The notes under the pieces were generated by a model. The model saw only the letters and a program-made list of their open reading frames with translations, was not told the origin of the DNA and searched no databases. From contig CAXXUA010000005.1 of assembly GCA_963663765.2 (NCBI GenBank), positions 576,001 to 640,000 of the forward strand: a stretch of 64,000 nt of DNA. Reading direction: 5' to 3'. The position numbers and the translations under genes are program-made. The stretch is from Candidatus Poribacteria bacterium. GTDB taxonomy: Bacteria > Poribacteria > WGA-4E > WGA-3G. Below, piece after piece: positions 17,783-29,636 of the stretch. Position 1 is the stretch's first letter. The number at the start of each line of letters is the position of its first letter.

Positions 17783-18580
17783 ATGGTAAAACTTACGCAA
17801 GATGACATAGAGTTTTTCAAGAATGAAGGTTATTTAGTCAAACGCGACGTCCTAAACCCAGAACTAATGGAACGCGCACGAACAAGATTATGGGATGGAG
17901 CACCAGAGGGAAGACTTCGAGAGGACCCAGACACATGGGTTGGTCCCTTCAAAAAGGAAGAAGAGAACGAAGAAAACTCCAATCGGAGAAAAGGATTTAG
18001 ATGGAACTTCCGTGAACCCGGTGGGGAAGATTGGATGATAAAACTACTCGCTACCGATCCAAATGTCTGGCACATGGCAGAACAGTTCTTAGGTGAAGAA
18101 AACCTTGTGGAACCTAATCGCGTACGTGGAATCTATTGCACACTCCCTTATGGAAATGTCACAAAGAAATCAAGCGGATGTCATGTAGATGCACATCCAT
18201 TCCATCTTGGAGTTGTCGGTTATATTGATGACGTCCCCAAAGAAGGTGGCGGTTTTACAGTGTGGCCCGGAAGCCATAAGATCTTCTATTACGACTATAA
18301 ATCGCAGTATAAGAACGAACCGACACCACAATATGACATTGATCGTGAACGGCTTAGTAGAGAACTGGGTGTTGAATGTTATGGTAATGCAGGAGATATA
18401 GTCTTCTGGCATCATCGCATAGGACATGCAGCGGGACATAACTACTCCAGGCAGATACGGCAAGCCGTCATATACAGCTATAAAAAAACTGAATTGTCGG
18501 AAACACAAGAAGATCCACCCAACAAAGACATGTGGAGAGATTGGCCTGGTATAAAAGCGTTAGAGAAGACAGATACATAG
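17783..18580 (+). CDS. Phytanoyl-CoA dioxygenase (PhyH) family Fe(II)/2OG oxygenase
   Basis: LTQDDIEFFKNEGYLV, HVD, GGFTVWPGSH, AGDIVFWH, distal H and R. Confidence 0.9.
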   Translation: MVKLTQDDIEFFKNEGYLVKRDVLNPELMERARTRLWDGAPEGRLREDPDTWVGPFKKEEENEENSNRRKGFRWNFREPGGEDWMIKLLATDPNVWHMAEQFLGEENLVEPNRVRGIYCTLPYGNVTKKSSGCHVDAHPFHLGVVGYIDDVPKEGGGFTVWPGSHKIFYYDYKSQYKNEPTPQYDIDRERLSRELGVECYGNAGDIVFWHHRIGHAAGHNYSRQIRQAVIYSYKKTELSETQEDPPNKDMWRDWPGIKALEKTDT

Positions 18581-19056: not shown

Positions 19057-19854
19057 ATGGTAGAACTTACGCAAGATGACATTGAGTTTTTCAAGAATGA
19101 AGGTTATTTAGTCAAACGCAACGTCCTAAACTCAGAACTAATGGAACGCGCACGAACAAGATTATGGGATGGAGCACCAGAGGGAAGACTTCGAGAGGAC
19201 CCAGACACATGGGTTGGTCCCTTCAAAAAGGAAGAAGAGAACGAAGAAAACTCCAATCGGAGAAAAGGATTCAGATGGAACTTCCGTGAACCCGGTGGGG
19301 AAGATTGGATGATAAAACTACTCGCTACCGATCCAAATGTCTGGCACATGGCAGAACAGTTCTTAGGTGAAGGAAGCCTTGTGGAACCAAAACGCATCCG
19401 TGGAATCTATTGCACACTCCCCTATGGAGATGTCATAAAGAAATCAAGCGGATGTCATGTAGATGCACATCCATTCCATCTTGGAGTTGTCGGTTATATT
19501 GATGACGTCCCAAAAGAAGGTGGTGGTTTTACAGTGTGGCCCGGAAGCCATAAAATCTTCTATTACGATTACAAATCGCAGTATAAGAACGAACCGACAC
19601 CACAATATGACATTGATCGTGAACGACTCAGTAGAGAACCAGGAGTTGAATGCAATGGCAATGCAGGAGATATAGTCTTCTGGCATCATCGCATCGGACA
19701 TACAGCAGGACATAACTACTCCAGACAGATACGACAAGCTGTCCTGTACGACTTTAGAAAAACCGAATTGTCAGAAACACAAGAAGAACCACCTAACGAA
19801 GATATGTGGAGAGATTGGCCGGGAATAAAAGCTTTGGAGAAGTCAGATACTTAG
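19057..19854 (+). CDS. Phytanoyl-CoA dioxygenase (PhyH) family protein, duplicate copy
   Basis: Near-identical to 17783-18580; HVD...H facial triad. Confidence 0.9.
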   Translation: MVELTQDDIEFFKNEGYLVKRNVLNSELMERARTRLWDGAPEGRLREDPDTWVGPFKKEEENEENSNRRKGFRWNFREPGGEDWMIKLLATDPNVWHMAEQFLGEGSLVEPKRIRGIYCTLPYGDVIKKSSGCHVDAHPFHLGVVGYIDDVPKEGGGFTVWPGSHKIFYYDYKSQYKNEPTPQYDIDRERLSREPGVECNGNAGDIVFWHHRIGHTAGHNYSRQIRQAVLYDFRKTELSETQEEPPNEDMWRDWPGIKALEKSDT

Positions 19855-19962: not shown

Positions 19963-21657
19963 CTAATTCTGTCCCAAAACCTTCAGAAACTCAGGATCTT
20001 CCTTTACTTCTGAAAATTCAGGTGTTTCAAGGAAGGCAGGATAGTATCTTGCTTCATTCCAATAATTTCCGATGTAGTTTGAAGCAAGTTTCAAATTGTG
20101 CAGAGTCTTCTCTCGATCTTTCTCAGTTACCCAGATTGCGACAGCGAGCATGAAATACGCCCAATCGTTCTTATTTTGCAGATCAAGAGAGGTTTTTAAG
20201 AAACGTTTTGCTTCCTCATACTTCTTTGACCAGACGAGGCAACACCCGAAGTCATGAGCAGCCCAGATAAGATCACCCGTATTGACAGGATAACCAGCTC
20301 CATGTTTTTCGACTTCCAATTCAATAAACTTACTGAGGTCCGAAAACACTGAATCAAAAAGTACCCAGTCTTCCTGTTTACTGTAAATCAAGACTTTATT
20401 CGTTCTAATAGCCAACCAGAATCGGAAATAATGTTTCCAATCCTGATCTTTGTTAGCATGTTCTAACTTATCTAAGCCAAGAAGTGCATCCTCAAAAAGA
20501 TCGTTGTTTCGTAATACCTCTGCTCCAATTTGCAGAAAATCACAGCGGGAGTAGTCACTCACATCTTGGTTGACTAAACGTTCGGATGCCTCATCATGAA
20601 GTTGAATCCATTCTTCAATTCGACCTTCATCTTTCCAACATCCGGCAGCGTTCAGATTAGACATCACCTCTAATACATGCTTATCTGACATGTGCTGGCA
20701 TGTCCAACGGTAAAGCCGTGTATGCTCTTCAATAGTTTCTCGGTTTCTTTCCAAACAAGCAAGACTATTCACTAAGTTCTGATGTGCCCAGAAACGTTCG
20801 TCATCACTTGGTGCTTTGTCTTGATAATTTCGGAGTAGTGCAATCCGACTTTCCATTCCGATTTTTCCATAATGCGCGTAAATATCATCCACAGCAAAAT
20901 GCACCAACTCTTTTGTGATTTTTCCCTTGAGTGCCTCTTCTACCTCAACATAAGCTTCCTTAAGGATTTCCTCTCCTGAGAGAATATCATTCTGCGTAAT
21001 GGGATAAGATTCTACCTTTTCCATATACGCATTAAATTTGCTGCGAATGTCTTCCAATTTAACAGACATAATATCTCCTTTGTAACCACTCCAAATCTCA
21101 CGAATTGTATATTCCTCCTTCAGTAGACGTTTACGGGCGCGATGGAGCCGACTCTTGACCGTATTCGTTGATACACCCAAAAAATCGCTAATATCTGCAC
21201 ACGTCATGTCTTCAAGATAGTGTAACCTGATAGTGGTACGTTCACCCACTGGTAACTTTTGAAGAAGGTGTTTAACAACTTCGCGTTGTTGTTCAAACGC
21301 AATTTCCTTTTGCTGTTTTTCGTGGTACTTTGTATAAGCCAGTTCCTCTAATTCCCCAGCAGGCATGGTATCTAAGGACGTCATTGGAATCCGCTTTTTT
21401 TCATACCAAGCGTAACAATAACGAGCTGCTATCACATAAAGCCACCCAACAAAACTATTCTGATTCTTCAATGTGTGAAGTTTCTGGTGGACTCTCAAGA
21501 ATATATCTTGCGTGACTTCTTCAGCGATGTGGTAGTCACCGATTTTCCGCCATACGAAAGTGTGAACGGGCTTTTGGTATTTTTGCACAAGTACGTTGAA
21601 AGCAGATTGGTCACCTGCCAATGTTCGTTGAATCAATTGTGCGTCATCGTTTTTCAT
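19963..21657 (-). CDS. ECF sigma-70 factor fused to a helical/TPR-like C-terminal domain
   Basis: Sigma2 (AFNVLVQKY...AEEVTQDIFL...FVGWLY), sigma4 (TVKSRLHRARKRL); C-terminus helical with TPR-like repeats. Confidence 0.88.
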   Translation of the reverse strand: MKNDDAQLIQRTLAGDQSAFNVLVQKYQKPVHTFVWRKIGDYHIAEEVTQDIFLRVHQKLHTLKNQNSFVGWLYVIAARYCYAWYEKKRIPMTSLDTMPAGELEELAYTKYHEKQQKEIAFEQQREVVKHLLQKLPVGERTTIRLHYLEDMTCADISDFLGVSTNTVKSRLHRARKRLLKEEYTIREIWSGYKGDIMSVKLEDIRSKFNAYMEKVESYPITQNDILSGEEILKEAYVEVEEALKGKITKELVHFAVDDIYAHYGKIGMESRIALLRNYQDKAPSDDERFWAHQNLVNSLACLERNRETIEEHTRLYRWTCQHMSDKHVLEVMSNLNAAGCWKDEGRIEEWIQLHDEASERLVNQDVSDYSRCDFLQIGAEVLRNNDLFEDALLGLDKLEHANKDQDWKHYFRFWLAIRTNKVLIYSKQEDWVLFDSVFSDLSKFIELEVEKHGAGYPVNTGDLIWAAHDFGCCLVWSKKYEEAKRFLKTSLDLQNKNDWAYFMLAVAIWVTEKDREKTLHNLKLASNYIGNYWNEARYYPAFLETPEFSEVKEDPEFLKVLGQN

Positions 21658-22003: not shown

Positions 22004-23706
22004 CTATTTTCCAAAAATATGCAGAAACTCTGGATCGTCCTTTATATCTGAAAACTCGTGTGTGCTACGAAAAGATGAATAGTAACTATCCATATAATTG
22101 TAGGCTTCTACTATATAGTAGTCCTGAGCAATTTTTAAATGATGCAAAGTTTTCTCGCGATCCTTCTTTGATGCCCAGATACTCACAGCGAGCATGAAGT
22201 GTCCATAATGATTGTTATTCCCCAAATCACTCGCAACCTGCAGGAATCGTGTTGCATCACTATACTTACCTAACCACACAAGGACACACCCTATATCATG
22301 AGTAAACCATATTAGATCACTAAGATCTACAGGTTGACCTGCTTCCATTTTTTCAACTCTACTTCCATATAGTAAGTAACTTCCGTAATAATTTCAATGT
22401 AACGTTCCCACTCCTTCTTTCTGGCATACAGTAGAAGTCGATTTGTTCTCACAGCCAACCAAAATCGAAAAAAATGTTTCCAATCTTGTTTAGTGTTCAC
22501 GCGTTCCAATTTCTCTATCTCTTGAAGTGCCTCATCAGTCCTACCGTTTGCACGTAAGACTTCTGCTCCCATTTGCAAAAAATCGCAGCGACTGTAGTAA
22601 CTCACTTCAGATTTATCTAAACGTTCAGATGCTTCAGTATATAGTTGGATCCAGTCATCAATTCTATTTTCAGCTGCCCAACATCCAGCACTATTTAGAT
22701 TAGAAATAATTTGCAAGACATCCTTATCAGGTAGGTTTTGGTGGCATGCCCACTTGTAAAGTCGAGTGTGTTCCTCAACAGCTTCTCGGTTCTTCCCGAG
22801 AATAGAGAGACTGATGACTAAATTCTCATGTGCCCAAAAACGTTCTGTATCATCTGGTGCATCATCCAAATATTTACGGAGTAAAGTCACACGTTTTTCT
22901 ATACCGAGTCTACCCATGTGTGGATACAAATTATCAACCACAAGATGTACTAATTCAGGTGTAATTTCGCCCTTAAGCGTATCTTCAATCTCTTTGGATG
23001 CATCCTTAAGAATACTCTCTCTTGATGTTGGATCAGATTTTACTTGTTCCATGAATGAATCGAACTTGCTGCGAAGTTGCTCTAATTGACTCATTATATT
23101 CTCCTTTAAATCATGGGGTATTTGTATTTGACCAAAGAATTCTTGATCTAACAGTTCCTGATCAGTTTGTAAACGTTTTCGTGCACGTTGGAGACGGCTG
23201 GTAATTGTATTTACCGACACTCCCATGAATTCACCAATCTCTTTTGTTGACATTTCGTCGAGATAGTAGTGTGTTACCACCGCGCGTTCTTCCTCTGGTA
23301 GTTTATCCAGTAGCTTTTGCACAAGCTCCTGGCAATACTCGTTTCTATCAGTTACCCACTGTTCCGCAATGTGATGAGTATAAGAGGCTTCCCCAATTTC
23401 TTCTGGATGAGTGGTCTCCAGAGATTGCATCACAGGCTTTTGCTTTCGTATCCAATCAATGCAAAGGTGTTTTGCGATGACATGAATCCATCCTGCAAAT
23501 TGGTCATGATCTTTGAGTGTAGACAATTTTTTATATGCCTTAAGGAATGTGTCTTGCATGATCTCTTCCGCATAGTGAAAGTCGTGTAACTTTCTCCATG
23601 CAAGCGCGTGAATGCTCTTTTGGTACCTTTCTACCAAGACACCAAACGCAGCCTCGTCCCCAGATAAGATTTTGCGTATCAATTTAACATCGTCATCTCT
23701 TTCCAC
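22004..23706 (-). pseudogene. ECF sigma + TPR-like fusion (paralog of 19963-21657), split by a 1-nt frameshift near 22350
   Basis: ORFs 22327-23706 and 22004-22348 together align end to end with the paralog; the shift lies at or near the A6 run in GAGTTGAAAAAATGG. Confidence 0.8.
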
Positions 23707-26125: not shown

Positions 26126-26355
26126 ATATAGTTAAAAAGTGAAAAAAAGTTATTTATGGTAGAATTTTTGTGCGGAGAAATGATAAACCCGATTTCATAA
26201 TCTCAGGGTGAGAATAATTGAGATGTGTCTCAACGTATTTAATGGTGAAGCGGATGGTTCTCAATGGTATAAGTTTGTGCCTGATATAAGTGATCATGTA
26301 ATGCGCAAACTATTCCATAAATTATCTGTGATTTAATCACTTAGTTTTTTCTGTT

Positions 26356-26477
26356 CAGGACTTACGCACCTAACGGTAGGCGCGCTTTGAAAGCGCGCTG
26401 GAAACCAAAAAAATGCTGAAAATTACACCATTTTCGTCATAATTCTTCATCAAATCATGAAAACTGCGTAAGTCCTG
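26356..26477. mobile_element. MITE family A, 5-bp duplication CTGTT
   Basis: CAGGACTTACGCA...TGCGTAAGTCCTG, 122 bp. Confidence 0.9.
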
Positions 26478-26515
26478 CTGTTTATAGTTATTTCATAGAT
26501 GTTTCGTAGATTTTA

Positions 26516-26637
26516 CAGGACTTACGCACCCAACGGTAGGCGTGCTTTGTAAGCGCGCCGGAAACCTAAAATATGCTGAAAATTACATCGTTTTCGGCTT
26601 AAGTCTTGATTGGATCATGAAAACTGCGTAAGTCCTG
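26516..26637. mobile_element. MITE family A, 5-bp duplication TTTTA
   Basis: CAGGACTTACGCA...TGCGTAAGTCCTG, 122 bp. Confidence 0.9.
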
Positions 26638-26638
26638 T

Positions 26639-26767
26639 TTTATAATTGACTTGACATTTTGAATAGTAGGAGGTAACTCCGATTTCCGACTATCAAAAGG
26701 TTTGGTCATGATTCTGAGATCGCTCCTACAGAAGAACTGACAATATATTCTCTATAATTCACGATAA
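26639..26767. mobile_element. MITE family G carrying REP GTAGGAGG(G/T)AACTCCGATT(T/C)CCGAC
   Basis: Same left end (TTATAATTGACTTGACATTTTGA) as 27386-27515. Confidence 0.7.
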
Positions 26768-26778
26768 TTCTGTAATTT

Positions 26779-27390
26779 ATAGTAGAATCCGAAAATATAT
26801 TTACACTCCGAGATAGGATCTCACATAACACGTTTGTAGGTGTTGGGTAACCCAACCCCATAAGCGTCAATTTAAGGATTTTCACCTCTTGTGGGAGGGG
26901 TTTTCAACTTAAGGATTTTCACCTCTTGTAGGCTTACAATTACCCATAAGTTTTTGGGTATAGTCCGTTAAGTCTTTTGTGGGTGCCTATTGCTTAAAAA
27001 CACCTGAAAACTGACCAATATTTTAGATGTAGCATACCGTTATAGTCCTTTTAGACAAGTTTCACAAGATTTTTAGTTCTTATGACCAGTTTTCTGTAAT
27101 CTATCGGGGTTAGAAACCCCTCCTACAGCAGCATGTCGTGCCTTTGTACCTCCAATTTGACTTATGGGTAAAAGTAAGCTTGTGGGAGGGGTTTTCAACT
27201 TAAGGATTTTCACCTCTTGTGGGAGGGTTTTTCAACCCCGATGTTTTAGCGCATTTCCGCTCAAATCGAGGTTTAAAAACCCTCCCACAAGAGAAATGAA
27301 AACAATATTTTCTTAAATTGACGCCTATGGGGCGGGGAGACCCCGCCCCTACGTCCAGTAACCAAAACTTTACACACCCTAGATTTTATA
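26779..27390. mobile_element. Triple-nested MITE cluster: outer REPIN element > family H (26861-27327) > inner element (~26930-27181)
   Basis: H: TAAGCGTCAATTTAAG...CTTAAATTGACGCCTA. Inner: GCTTACAATTACCCATAAG...CTTATGGGTAAAAGTAAGC. Outer REP halves at ~26836 and ~27328. Confidence 0.75.
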
Positions 27391-27515
27391 ATTGACTTGA
27401 CATTTTGAGTTGTAGGAGGGAACTCCGATTTCCGACTGTCAAAGGGTTTGATAGTCGGGAATCGGAGTTCCCTCCTACAACTCAGGATGTAGATTTAATT
27501 GTATAATCCACCATA
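27386..27515. mobile_element. MITE family G with REPIN
   Basis: GTAGGAGGGAACTCCGATTTCCGAC...GTCGGGAATCGGAGTTCCCTCCTAC inverted pair. Confidence 0.75.
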
Positions 27516-27525
27516 AACGCGAAAA

Positions 27526-28746
27526 CTAAGTGTCTCTGAACATAGTTTTGGAATGAAATTCAGAGATGCTTTCAACACCATGGAGCAACATTTCATCGCT
27601 TAGACCGAACACCTCAGCTACTTTCAATGGACGATCTACCGTGTCAAGAAGCCTTTGGTTCGGCATAACAAGAACAGAATCAGCATTTTCGCGAAGTTCC
27701 TGCAGTCCTTGTTCTGCGCGTTCGGCGCGCCGTTCCCCTTCAAACATAAACGGACAAGTGACAATGCCAACAGTTAGAGCCCCTTGTTCTCGCGCAAGGG
27801 ATGCAATCAGAGGTGCAGCACCTGTTCCTGTCCCACCACCCATGCCAGCGGTAATGAAGACCATGTCCGCGTCCGCAACAATGTTATGGAGCGTTTCTCT
27901 GTCTTCCTCAGCGGCTTTTTTACCTATCTCTGGATTTGCGCCACAACCAAGTCCTTGCGTGGTGTTCGCACCGATCTGAACCGGTGTTGCGTCAGCGCAT
28001 GTATCCAATGCTTGTTGATCTGTGTTTACAACGTAGAATTCAATATCTGTCAAACCGGCACCTATCATTCGTTTGACAGCGTTCCCTCCCGCTCCACCGA
28101 CGCCAATAACTTTAATTTTCGTTCGGGTGCGTTTGGATTTATCTTGTTTAGATGACATAACTTTACCTCTTTCAGGTTCAACGTTGAACTCCTTACGTAG
28201 GAGTTCACGTGCCTGTCTTAATTTGGTTTTGATTGTTCCTATCGCTAATTCGAGTTCAGCGTGGATCTCTTTGACACTCCACAATTCCAGATAGTATAAC
28301 TCCGCGACGCGGCGCACTTTTTCTGGAAGATGATGCACTGCTTCATTTACTGCCTCACGAAGTTCTGTTTCTTGGAAACGTGTAACTGCGTTCTGATCAA
28401 TTTGATCGGTTAAGTAAGCATCACTGCACAGAATTTCACCCTTTGAATGGTGGCGAGAAACGTAGTACCTCTTGCAGGCGTTGTAAGCAATGCGGTGCAG
28501 CCATCCACCAAAACTCTCAAGGTTTTGCAGTCCGCTGATGTTTTCCCAAACAGAACGCCAGACATCCATGAGAATTTCTTCAGCGTCGCGGCGTTGTCTC
28601 GAATTTGTGATAATCACTTTCCAGATGCGTGGACTATAACGCAACATCAGTTCTGTCAATGCTGATTCATCTCCGATTTGTGTAAACTGGATGAGTTCTT
28701 CATCTGTCAGATCTGTGTACGTTGATAGATTGTCTCGCATAAACAT
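27526..28746 (-). CDS. ECF sigma-70 factor fused to the N-terminal GTPase domain of FtsZ
   Basis: Sigma2/4 in aa ~10-185. Then KIKVIGVGGAGGNAV, NTD, GLGCGANPEIG, AGMGGGTGTG, PFMFEG, PNQRL. Ends before the T7 loop. Confidence 0.92.
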   Translation of the reverse strand: MFMRDNLSTYTDLTDEELIQFTQIGDESALTELMLRYSPRIWKVIITNSRQRRDAEEILMDVWRSVWENISGLQNLESFGGWLHRIAYNACKRYYVSRHHSKGEILCSDAYLTDQIDQNAVTRFQETELREAVNEAVHHLPEKVRRVAELYYLELWSVKEIHAELELAIGTIKTKLRQARELLRKEFNVEPERGKVMSSKQDKSKRTRTKIKVIGVGGAGGNAVKRMIGAGLTDIEFYVVNTDQQALDTCADATPVQIGANTTQGLGCGANPEIGKKAAEEDRETLHNIVADADMVFITAGMGGGTGTGAAPLIASLAREQGALTVGIVTCPFMFEGERRAERAEQGLQELRENADSVLVMPNQRLLDTVDRPLKVAEVFGLSDEMLLHGVESISEFHSKTMFRDT

Positions 28747-28767
28747 TTTCCAATTAGATTTAACCTA

Positions 28768-28796
28768 TAGAGTTATCTTTTTCGGTAGGGGGTTTA
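28768..28796 (-). promoter_or_regulatory. Putative ECF-type promoter TAAACC-N17-ACTCTA
   Basis: Position and spacing match the other ECF loci; weaker sequence match. Confidence 0.35.
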
Positions 28797-28853
28797 AAAA
28801 AAGCAAAATTTTTAAGAATTTAGAATCTTCCATTCTGAATTTCAGTTATTTCA

Positions 28854-29636
28854 TTAATTAGTTTTTTCCGATTTTAGATATTTTAATGTGTTTTCGACAA
28901 TGTAGTCCCCTGAATCTTCAAGAAACTGCTGAACCAGAAATGCATGCCCAGCACCGATAATCAGCAAAATTCGATCATTGGCAGATTCGGTGATGCGTGT
29001 CAGATTCACAAAGATTTTAAGATTTCTCTCGTACCAGCCCAATAACCAATCCAATCCGACATATTGGTCTGCTACACCGATTTGGGCGAGTGTGAACTGT
29101 GGAAGCATGTTAATCTCATGTATAACACGAATGGTTTCTTTCTGATTGAGAAAATGGAGCATATCAATCACACTCCCAGTTTTTTGGAGCTCTATGAGGG
29201 TGGCGAGAGGCTTCTGTACTATAGATTGAAGTCTGGTATCTGCTTTTTCCAGCAATCGGCATTGGTTATGCGTCTTTGCAAATGCATCAACATCCACTAT
29301 TTTTTCCTTGTCTGATCTCCCAAAGTAGTCAACACAGTAAATCTTTGGATGTTGCATCTCTTTTGCCAGTGGAAAACTGACTTGATCGCCTTCACTCCGT
29401 CCCGGTTTATATACTTCATTTAGATAATCTTGATACTGAGCGTTGACTTCAGCATCAAGACTGGTATCTGCCTCAACTGCTATCTTATCTGGGTTAAATT
29501 GCGCAAGTTGTTTGACAAGTTGCTGAAGTTCACGCTGCATTTTAGGAGCCAACACATCATCTGATTCAAAGTTGACAGCATCCGCTCCTGGGTTGTCCAT
29601 GTGATAAGTGCCAAGAATCATGATAGTTGGTTTCAT
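28854..29636 (-). CDS. DUF5694-like protein (TraB/erythromycin esterase-like fold)
   Basis: IMILGTYH, PDKIAVE, WYERN, LLIIGAGH motifs; AAAGGAG RBS before MKPT. Confidence 0.75.
   Translation of the reverse strand: MKPTIMILGTYHMDNPGADAVNFESDDVLAPKMQRELQQLVKQLAQFNPDKIAVEADTSLDAEVNAQYQDYLNEVYKPGRSEGDQVSFPLAKEMQHPKIYCVDYFGRSDKEKIVDVDAFAKTHNQCRLLEKADTRLQSIVQKPLATLIELQKTGSVIDMLHFLNQKETIRVIHEINMLPQFTLAQIGVADQYVGLDWLLGWYERNLKIFVNLTRITESANDRILLIIGAGHAFLVQQFLEDSGDYIVENTLKYLKSEKTN

Follow-up and report, generated by a model that had tools for sequence, protein, structure and literature searches.

An ECF-type sigma factor that carries the GTP-binding half of FtsZ in Candidatus Poribacteria

Introduction

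The C-terminal extensions of extracytoplasmic function (ECF) sigma factors that are listed in a portion of PMC8999054 comprise SnoaL, TPR, WD40-like, Cys-rich and anti-sigma-like domains, and the same portion describes ECF57 as having a WD40-like C-terminal extension and two conserved cysteines that link sigma2 and sigma4. The known extensions form one-protein signalling paths that bind small molecules, metals or unknown partners. Here we describe a gene of Candidatus Poribacteria, a bacterium of sponge-symbiont type, in which an ECF-type sigma factor continues in frame into a recognisable and strongly conserved half of the central division protein FtsZ, and whose sister genes carry parts of the replisome. 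The gene, termed sigma-FtsZN, lies on the reverse strand of a 64,000-nucleotide (nt) stretch (GenBank assembly GCA_963663765.2, contig CAXXUA010000005.1, positions 576,001 to 640,000 of the forward strand), which is referred to below as the window.

Like other ECF sigma factors with extensions, sigma-FtsZN has a sigma2 plus sigma4 core, a fused C-terminal domain, its own promoter and no adjoining anti-sigma gene. What sets it apart is that the extended part derives from a duplicated portion of the division GTPase of the cell itself, where the others have small-molecule or repeat domains. A sigma factor fused to the GTP-binding half of FtsZ seems to be undescribed. An initial annotation of the window, made from its letters, knew of no described FtsZ extension, and none turned up in the literature searched here: the words 'FtsZ' and 'tubulin' are absent from the main texts, as distinct from the supplements, of PMC8999054 and PMC7826278, and full-text literature searches returned no paper on a sigma-FtsZ fusion, with the proviso that such an architecture could be listed in the tables that supplement the ECF classification (PMC7826278).

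According to passages of a preprint on FtsZ assembly (10.1101/2021.11.29.470395), the H6-H7 loop, T5, T3 and H1/H2 make up the longitudinal interface on the side of the nucleotide domain, and an incoming monomer joins the T7-exposing growing end by its GTP-bound top face. An excerpt of PMC9245647 cites MciZ as a filament capper that binds interface sites. The filament effect proposed below resembles that of MciZ in that the longitudinal interface would be occupied. The two proteins are unrelated in sequence and fold: MciZ is a miniprotein on sites of the FtsZ bottom side, whereas here an FtsZ domain would act through its native top face. FtsZ mutants altered in the bottom face are toxic and, to our knowledge, one-faced FtsZ subunits have so far been made only in the laboratory, by mutation or truncation.

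The nearest precedent for a physical tie between a sigma factor and the replication machine is the late transcription of phage T4, where a short clamp-binding motif joins a sigma-like protein to the sliding clamp, the two being separate proteins. The sister fusions of sigma-FtsZN (sigma-DnaN and sigma-FtsZ-DnaE) are comparable in tying a sigma to a part of that machine. Unlike the T4 parts, they are joined covalently and encoded by a cellular genome, and sigma-FtsZN itself carries FtsZ, not a clamp.

Results

Domain architecture

The initial annotation described an ECF sigma2 plus sigma4 unit fused in frame to an FtsZ N-terminal domain, and the open frame of 406 amino acids (aa), Pfam and NCBIfam bear this out. 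Sigma70_r2 matches residues 34–97 and Sigma70_r4_2 residues 131–183, Sigma70_ECF is also matched, and the NCBIfam model sigma70-ECF (TIGR02937) is passed with 70.7 bits against a cut-off of 42.9. Solved ECF sigma chains from the PDB align to residues 8–195. Sigma2 and sigma4 stand alone, without sigma1.1 or sigma3, as is typical of ECF (group 4) sigma factors. The protein departs from the description of ECF57: its extension is derived from FtsZ and is not WD40-like, and its sole invariant cysteine is C91 where ECF57 has two.

The extension matches PF00091 (Tubulin/FtsZ GTPase domain) at residues 210–370 (E 8e-48), over profile positions 1–189 of 190, and thus has the Rossmann-type nucleotide-binding domain, GGGTG(T/S)G signature and T1–T6 loops of that family. 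The signatures GVGGAGGN, NTD, GGGTGTG, PFxFEG and PN, which had been pointed out in the initial annotation, can all be read in the translation. Residues G215, G217, G220, N222, G301, G305, G307, P332 and E336 are invariant among 86 aligned homologues, and N241, N363, Q364 and D384 nearly so. Over about 200 residues the FtsZ half shares 66% identity with the FtsZ of the host, and in the short forms (defined below) just three positions are fixed differently from canonical FtsZ.

The protein nevertheless falls outside the FtsZ family. The NCBIfam ftsZ model (TIGR00065) is matched only at positions 8–205 of 353, with 269.2 bits against a curated cut-off of 295.2, and the Pfam scan of the 406-aa protein gave no match to FtsZ_C (PF12327). 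The chain does end right after helix H7, as the initial annotation had read it, and both the T7 synergy loop (N.DFAD) and the C-terminal GTPase-activating domain are missing, as are the linker and C-terminal peptide of FtsZ. Solved Staphylococcus aureus FtsZ chains align as far as residue 397 ('...SISEF'). The C-terminus reads SISEFHSKTMFRDT before the stop, where the host FtsZ, a 447-aa protein whose gene adjoins ftsA, has SISEIIRETGEINVDFAD and carries on past the SISEF point with IIRETGEINVDFAD. In every respect that can be read from the sequence, the description in the initial annotation is correct.

An AlphaFold2 (AF2) model computed from the 86-row alignment gave block values of the predicted local distance difference test (pLDDT) of mostly 89–97 over residues 211–360 and 73–85 over residues 361–400, with a long terminal helix at residues 376–401. 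The linker (residues 190–207) is predicted to be disordered, with pLDDT below 50. Logan contigs from three runs in two studies cover the stop codon and the sigma/FtsZ junction with no differences (X1, 27456–29000; X3, 27456–28638; X4, 27451–28575), although one of these runs may be the sample from which the window was assembled.

The C-terminal end is native and conserved

We distinguish short forms (sigma-FtsZN of about 400 aa), mid forms (sigma plus full FtsZ) and long forms (sigma, full FtsZ and DnaE). Confinement of the fusion to this assembly, which the initial annotation would have taken as a refutation, is not seen. A word-index protein search listed at least 120 clusters at 72–87% identity, nearly all of 397–416 aa (two of 443 aa), which share the same three Pfam domains and a few of which are named Candidatus Poribacteria. 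By table count, 68 of the 151 genomes of the phylum contain an open frame of 398–464 aa that covers the whole query, all of them in one family (15 of 38 genomes in genus g1 and 53 of 57 in genus g2). In the other eight families (f2–f9, 51 genomes) the best E-values were only 1e-41 to 4e-78, as expected from FtsZ by itself.

Orthologues stop at the same point, which the initial annotation had proposed as a check; full-length FtsZ occurs in paralogues. All 17 orthologues that were fetched finish a few residues after a common '...SISEFH(S/A)..', and the motif EFH(S/A)(S/N)T, which bridges the end of the helix and the tail, is common to them. A phylogeny against canonical ftsZ had also been called for. 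In a tree of 61 FtsZ N-domains (30 short, 17 mid or long and 14 canonical, including five outgroups), the 47 fused copies form one clade, with a support of 97 in the Shimodaira-Hasegawa-like approximate likelihood ratio test (SH-aLRT). Within it the 30 short forms are again a single clade (SH-aLRT 99) that divides into g1 (5 rows) and g2 (25 rows). The truncation is therefore older than the split of the two genera.

Neutral evolution of the FtsZ part, another refuting condition named in the initial annotation, is likewise not seen. In pairwise comparisons of the 30 orthologues by the Nei-Gojobori method (NG86; 430 of 435 pairs kept), the median ratio of nonsynonymous to synonymous divergence (dN/dS) is 0.150 for the sigma part, 0.155 for the FtsZ half and 0.556 for the linker, and the maximum for the FtsZ half is 0.29. 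The FtsZ half is thus under purifying selection. We conclude that the end after H7 is native and conserved, and that the gene is a genuine one, inherited vertically in one poribacterial family. Its features are collected in Table 1.

The sigma part shows a further peculiarity. Between this gene and its counterparts in close relatives, L015 and L018 (L numbers denote loci, P numbers proteins), its synonymous divergence is 0.16–0.23, about one third of the 0.60 of the FtsZ part, which may reflect gene conversion among sigma paralogues or another constraint.

Table 1. Features of the sigma-FtsZN locus, in window coordinates
Feature	Position	Strand	Basis
Whole open reading frame, sigma-FtsZN	27526..28746	-	open frame, 406 aa + stop; Pfam, NCBIfam
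Sigma part, residues 1-190, sigma2 + sigma4 of ECF type	28177..28746	-	Pfam, NCBIfam, PDB chains, dN/dS
Linker, residues 191-208, Lys/Arg/Ser-rich, predicted disordered	28123..28176	-	AF2 pLDDT, dN/dS
Internal Shine-Dalgarno-like AGAGG (28170-28166) + ATG (28158-28156, Met197), sigma/FtsZ junction	28156..28170	-	kept in orthologues
FtsZ nucleotide-binding domain through helix H7, residues 209-401	27544..28122	-	PF00091, TIGR00065, AF2, dN/dS
Short tail + stop codon; tail shares orthologue motif	27526..27543	-	translation, orthologue ends
Candidate ECF-type promoter	28760..28803	-	conservation upstream of orthologues/paralogues, PWM score
MITE-like palindromic repeat just past stop codon	27382..27508	.	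62-nt inverted arms, genome BLAST

A candidate promoter shared by the sigma clade

The candidate promoter in the window consists of a T-tract (28802–28796), a -35 element AAACC (28795–28791), an 18-nt spacer and a -10 element CTCTATA (28772–28766). The block TTTTTTTAAACC-N18-CTC(T/A)TTA is kept upstream of 30 orthologues while the remaining spacer drifts, and the motif TTTTTTTAAACC-N18-CTC(T/A)(T/A)TA is found in 42 of the 44 fusion loci of other genomes, 13–42 nt ahead of the start codon. Mid and long paralogues have it upstream too, and so do three sigma-WD40 genes of contig 11, whose sigma parts are 54–59% identical to that of sigma-FtsZN. These are the nearest paralogues by sigma sequence, and they carry WD40 repeats, as does ECF57 in the outline given in part of PMC8999054. 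Genes of a different sigma clade on the same contig have GCAACC...CGTC upstream instead.

A position weight matrix (PWM), trained solely on sites from other genomes, was scanned over the 6.35-Mb genome at a threshold of 18 bits. Just six sites exceeded it, each directly upstream of a sigma paralogue of this clade, and the site in the window scored 39.9 bits. A looser core pattern gave 52 matches in the genome, compared to about 25 expected from composition; no match outside the paralogues has the T-tract, and no convincing target was added. In five other genomes the exact pattern gave 12 matches, compared to one for a reversed control. Nine of these are the fusions' own promoters, and the others lie before a MacB/FtsX-like permease, a secreted WD40 protein and one unassigned place. 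A group-specific candidate promoter whose -35 element contains AAC stands ahead of the gene itself, a trait of ECF (group 4) sigma factors that goes with autoregulation. From these patterns the sigma looks functional as an ECF sigma factor, and it would use the TTTTTTTAAACC-N18 promoter, that is, regulate its own gene.

A conserved internal ATG and free-standing FtsZ halves

The internal ribosome-binding site and ATG at 28158 noted in the initial annotation are present, the ATG (Met197) being preceded by AGAGG. This ATG, with a GGAG/GAGG-type motif 6–11 nt upstream, is kept in 30 of 30 short forms even though the linker is the fastest-evolving part of the gene, and Met197 is nearly invariant in the 86-row alignment, which takes in seven mid forms. 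Three loci in other assemblies (L088:3001-3639, L089:2974-3642 and L092:2974-3638) contain only an FtsZ half of 212–222 aa that begins at the equivalent of Met197. The sigma part is gone and repeats stand in its place, while the gene order (a small ECF sigma, DUF5694 copies, the gene, then a CBM9-like protein or an extended ECF sigma) is maintained. Two of the three are intact, and between L088 and L089 dN is 0.14 and dS 0.58, a ratio of 0.24. The persistence of these sigma-less halves at such a ratio indicates that the FtsZ half keeps some function without its sigma. The internal start is plausibly used in the complete gene as well.

Paralogues with FtsZ, DnaE, DnaN and WD40 extensions

The fusion proved to be one branch of a larger paralogue family, which the initial annotation had not remarked on and which widens the range of explanations. 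A family search of the genome found only four FtsZ-like places. Two of the paralogues, on contigs 6 and 13 (L002:1504-3288 and L003:1504-3288), are nearly identical 594-aa genes of sigma plus full FtsZ, with a changed T7-like loop (SVDLED or NVDLED), long branches in the tree and no DnaE after them. Contig 11 (44000–84000; L064 and L065) holds at least seven sigma-WD40 genes of two sigma clades among WD40-repeat proteins, each clade with its own upstream motif.

Long paralogues of 1350–1750 aa, with sigma, full FtsZ and DnaE in one frame, occur in 50 of the 151 genomes by table count (for example L044:597-4904 (+), L046:575-4618 (+) and L058:556-5787 (+)). Their DnaE part includes PHP, polymerase core, fingers and HhH. 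Measured against the host DnaE of 1177 aa, it stops at about residue 882 in L044, L045 and L049, lacking the last 295 residues or so; in L046 it ends near residue 806, and in L058 it aligns to about 861–881. The mid forms are scattered among the long ones in the tree and one of them retains half a PHP domain, so that they look like long forms minus DnaE.

Among the representatives of a library of 1.84 billion proteins, the same sigma clade is fused to DnaN domains 2–3 (469 aa) or directly to DnaE (502 and 1084 aa; P0135, P0136 and P0281 for the DnaN and direct DnaE fusions). Sigma-DnaN genes occur in at least 10 of the 101 genomes of the family that were scanned: L168 (1492-2901, -) encodes 469 aa, and L169 (460-2202, -), L170 (1501-3243, +), L171 and L172 encode 574–583 aa with full DnaN where the frame was read. 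They have the same promoter as the long FtsZ forms and the same ATP-binding cassette (ABC) permease gene in front; the extension has thus been swapped at a single locus. Two clusters represent another, rare sigma-FtsZ family, whose sigma is different.

Two other variations on FtsZ were encountered. In one related genome a further ftsZ-like gene, its second copy, is interrupted by a TAG in frame (L078:1501-2748, +), and four proteins of 730–840 aa (P0127, P0138, P0141 and P0142) contain two complete FtsZ units in tandem.

Discussion

A proposed one-faced FtsZ subunit tied to a sigma factor

We propose that sigma-FtsZN is an autoregulated ECF-type sigma factor whose C-terminal extension would be a polymerisation-incompetent half of FtsZ, made up of the nucleotide-binding domain and H7, that still binds GTP. 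The H6-H7 loop, T5, T3 and H1/H2 all lie within residues 209–401, and the opposite-face elements T7, H8, S9 and H10 are all missing. The half would thus retain everything on its top (nucleotide) face that is used to join a T7-exposing filament end or a free FtsZ subunit, while nothing could join behind it without the T7 loop and the C-terminal domain. In this it resembles FtsZ variants with a disabled T7 or bottom face: by the growing-end logic of 10.1101/2021.11.29.470395, a subunit that has an intact top face but no bottom face would be expected to join the growing end and block it. By docking on the host FtsZ or on sigma-FtsZ paralogues, the half would cap its partner and tether or sequester the sigma, whose availability to RNA polymerase would then follow the GTP state and assembly of FtsZ. 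A second product of the gene, the free FtsZ half, probably arises at the kept internal start. GTP binding, docking, capping and control of sigma activity are what we infer; the idea that the half docks on FtsZ as a one-faced subunit, capping the filament and tethering the sigma, is tentative, and we would put it at somewhat less than an even chance.

Modelling of the complex with FtsZ, which had been suggested in the initial annotation, gave weak support. With the FtsZ half and the host FtsZ core both supplied as alignments, the prediction scored 0.40 and the best of three controls 0.00, the runs agreed in at least 92% of contacts and the pLDDT of the partner was at least 81. This pair reached the mark used, as do 58 of 80 solved complexes and 2 of 110 mismatched pairs; a pass at a score of 0.60 or less was seen in no more than 7 of the 80 solved complexes, and in both of the mismatches that pass.

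Several observations weigh against the proposal. The complex score is weak, and may mirror a resemblance to FtsZ filaments of solved structure. The short forms have a glutamine at the position of R67 in S. aureus FtsZ, which forms an interface salt bridge according to part of 10.1101/2021.11.29.470395. The T3 loop is altered in the free-standing FtsZ halves, and one of these (L092) is split by a frameshift. The AF2 model, with a predicted template modelling score (pTM) of 0.52 and a disordered linker, does not place the sigma and the FtsZ half relative to each other, so the action of the extension on the sigma cannot be read from it. Neither the PWM scan nor the looser pattern found a regulon beyond the sigma paralogues in this genome. 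No division genes lie near the gene, whose neighbours are DUF5694, S9 peptidase and CBM9-like proteins and other ECF sigmas. Finally, the sister fusions to DnaE and DnaN widen the theme past FtsZ, and filament capping does not cover them; they argue that the logic, whatever form it takes, concerns replication and division machines in general.

Alternative explanations

The FtsZ half might never meet FtsZ, and instead act in cis in the manner of the SnoaL or Cys-rich extensions of other ECF sigmas, with the bound nucleotide, GTP or GDP, turning its own sigma on or off and so reporting on the energy or growth state. The strict conservation of the GTP-pocket residues and the lack of an adjoining anti-sigma gene would suit such a nucleotide sensor, and part of PMC8999054 describes ECF extensions in which a ligand drives a conformational change. 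Without a T7 loop the half would be unable to hydrolyse GTP alone, and so could hold its nucleotide. However, AF2 predicts a disordered 18-residue linker with no confident domain placement (pTM 0.52), a purely cis-regulatory domain would not be expected to survive the loss of its sigma under purifying selection, and only three positions have become fixed differently from canonical FtsZ. We consider the sensor unlikely, and likewise a scheme, if anything a shade less probable, in which the FtsZ half is the output: a positive-feedback loop of the sigma would make a division inhibitor, both as fusion and as free domain, for a self-amplifying stop of division. That scheme would account for the promoter motif standing only before sigma paralogues in this genome (six of six matches at the PWM threshold used), for the internal Shine-Dalgarno-like motif and ATG kept in 30 of 30 short forms and for the free-standing halves that begin at that Met, and FtsZ fragments from the longitudinal interface inhibit growth of Escherichia coli, as reported in a portion of PMC9245647. 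Yet a free-running loop that makes a division poison needs a brake, and none was found; the motif stands before a permease and a secreted protein in other genomes, which implies some further regulon; and the sigma-WD40 paralogues have the same promoter with no inhibitor-like domain.

The variety of extensions within one sigma clade (full FtsZ with C-terminally shortened DnaE, DnaE, DnaN in full or as domains 2–3, and WD40), exchanged at one locus behind the same ABC permease gene, brings to mind integrated baits: copies of FtsZ, DnaE and DnaN would serve as decoys, and binding by a phage or toxin protein would free or activate the sigma, which would start a defence or stress programme. There is a precedent for FtsZ as a trigger, the defence protein CapRel-Ebc being activated by FtsZ that is bound by phage T7 Gp0.4 (PMC13423816, in part). 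No defence genes were seen beside the gene in an inspection of the neighbourhood, as distinct from a dedicated defence-system scan, the promoter scans of the genome revealed no effector output, and the fusions are inherited vertically and evolve slowly, unlike most arms-race sensors. A bait is, in our view, improbable. Hardly credible is the remaining alternative, that a full-length sigma-FtsZ(-DnaE) paralogue was cut by the downstream repeat nest and is heading for loss. Damage was suspected at first on account of the two 594-aa paralogues with full FtsZ in the same genome; in addition, the nest of repeats starts about 10 bp past the stop codon, and a tblastn search of the window found no FtsZ C-terminal remnant. 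Against a decaying remnant, the end point and tail motif are common to orthologues of two genera, the short forms are one clade and dN/dS of the FtsZ half is low. The initial annotation had entertained the adjacent miniature inverted-repeat transposable element (MITE) as a cause of the end at 27526, but orthologues elsewhere stop alike despite different downstream sequence. An origin of the end by MITE damage, or as a pseudogene, is rejected on orthologue lengths, monophyly and dN/dS.

A broader scheme would combine capping with the sister fusions. An ECF clade would repeatedly have taken copies of FtsZ, DnaE and DnaN, often half-copies in which a single interface still works, thereby wiring its sigma directly either to the assembly of these machines or to their attack by phage or toxin proteins, with sigma-FtsZN as reader and capper of FtsZ. 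We regard this as rather unlikely, if still worth keeping in mind. If true, it would mean that bacteria have their own equivalent of integrated decoys, or that cells use a form of clamp-coupled transcription.

To the extension-bearing ECF sigma factors the gene adds a member that may tie gene expression to the division machinery, and it makes the repertoire of ECF extensions wider than current classification texts describe. If the half-FtsZ of sigma-FtsZN docks on FtsZ, it would constitute a direct physical link from the division apparatus to a transcription factor, and a one-faced FtsZ subunit that occurs in nature. Heterologous expression is open to all the parts (protein, FtsZ and promoter), which makes for a simple test system.

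Repeats and neighbouring genes

The MITE of the initial annotation consists of two inverted arms of 62 nt, at 27382–27443 and 27447–27508, and has roughly 180–360 BLAST matches in the genome. It belongs to a nest of repeats past the stop codon (26330–27520) with at least four kinds of short repeat, several of them palindromic, which have tens to hundreds of BLAST matches each in the genome, up to some 500.

Two further ECF sigmas in the window, at 19963–21657 (-) and 22327–23706 (-), have C-terminal extensions of about 280 and 380 residues that gave no Pfam match at E 0.001. Beyond them lie two genes for 265-aa PhyH-family dioxygenases, at 17783–18580 (+) and 19057–19854 (+), about 1.3 kb apart, an apparent tandem duplication.

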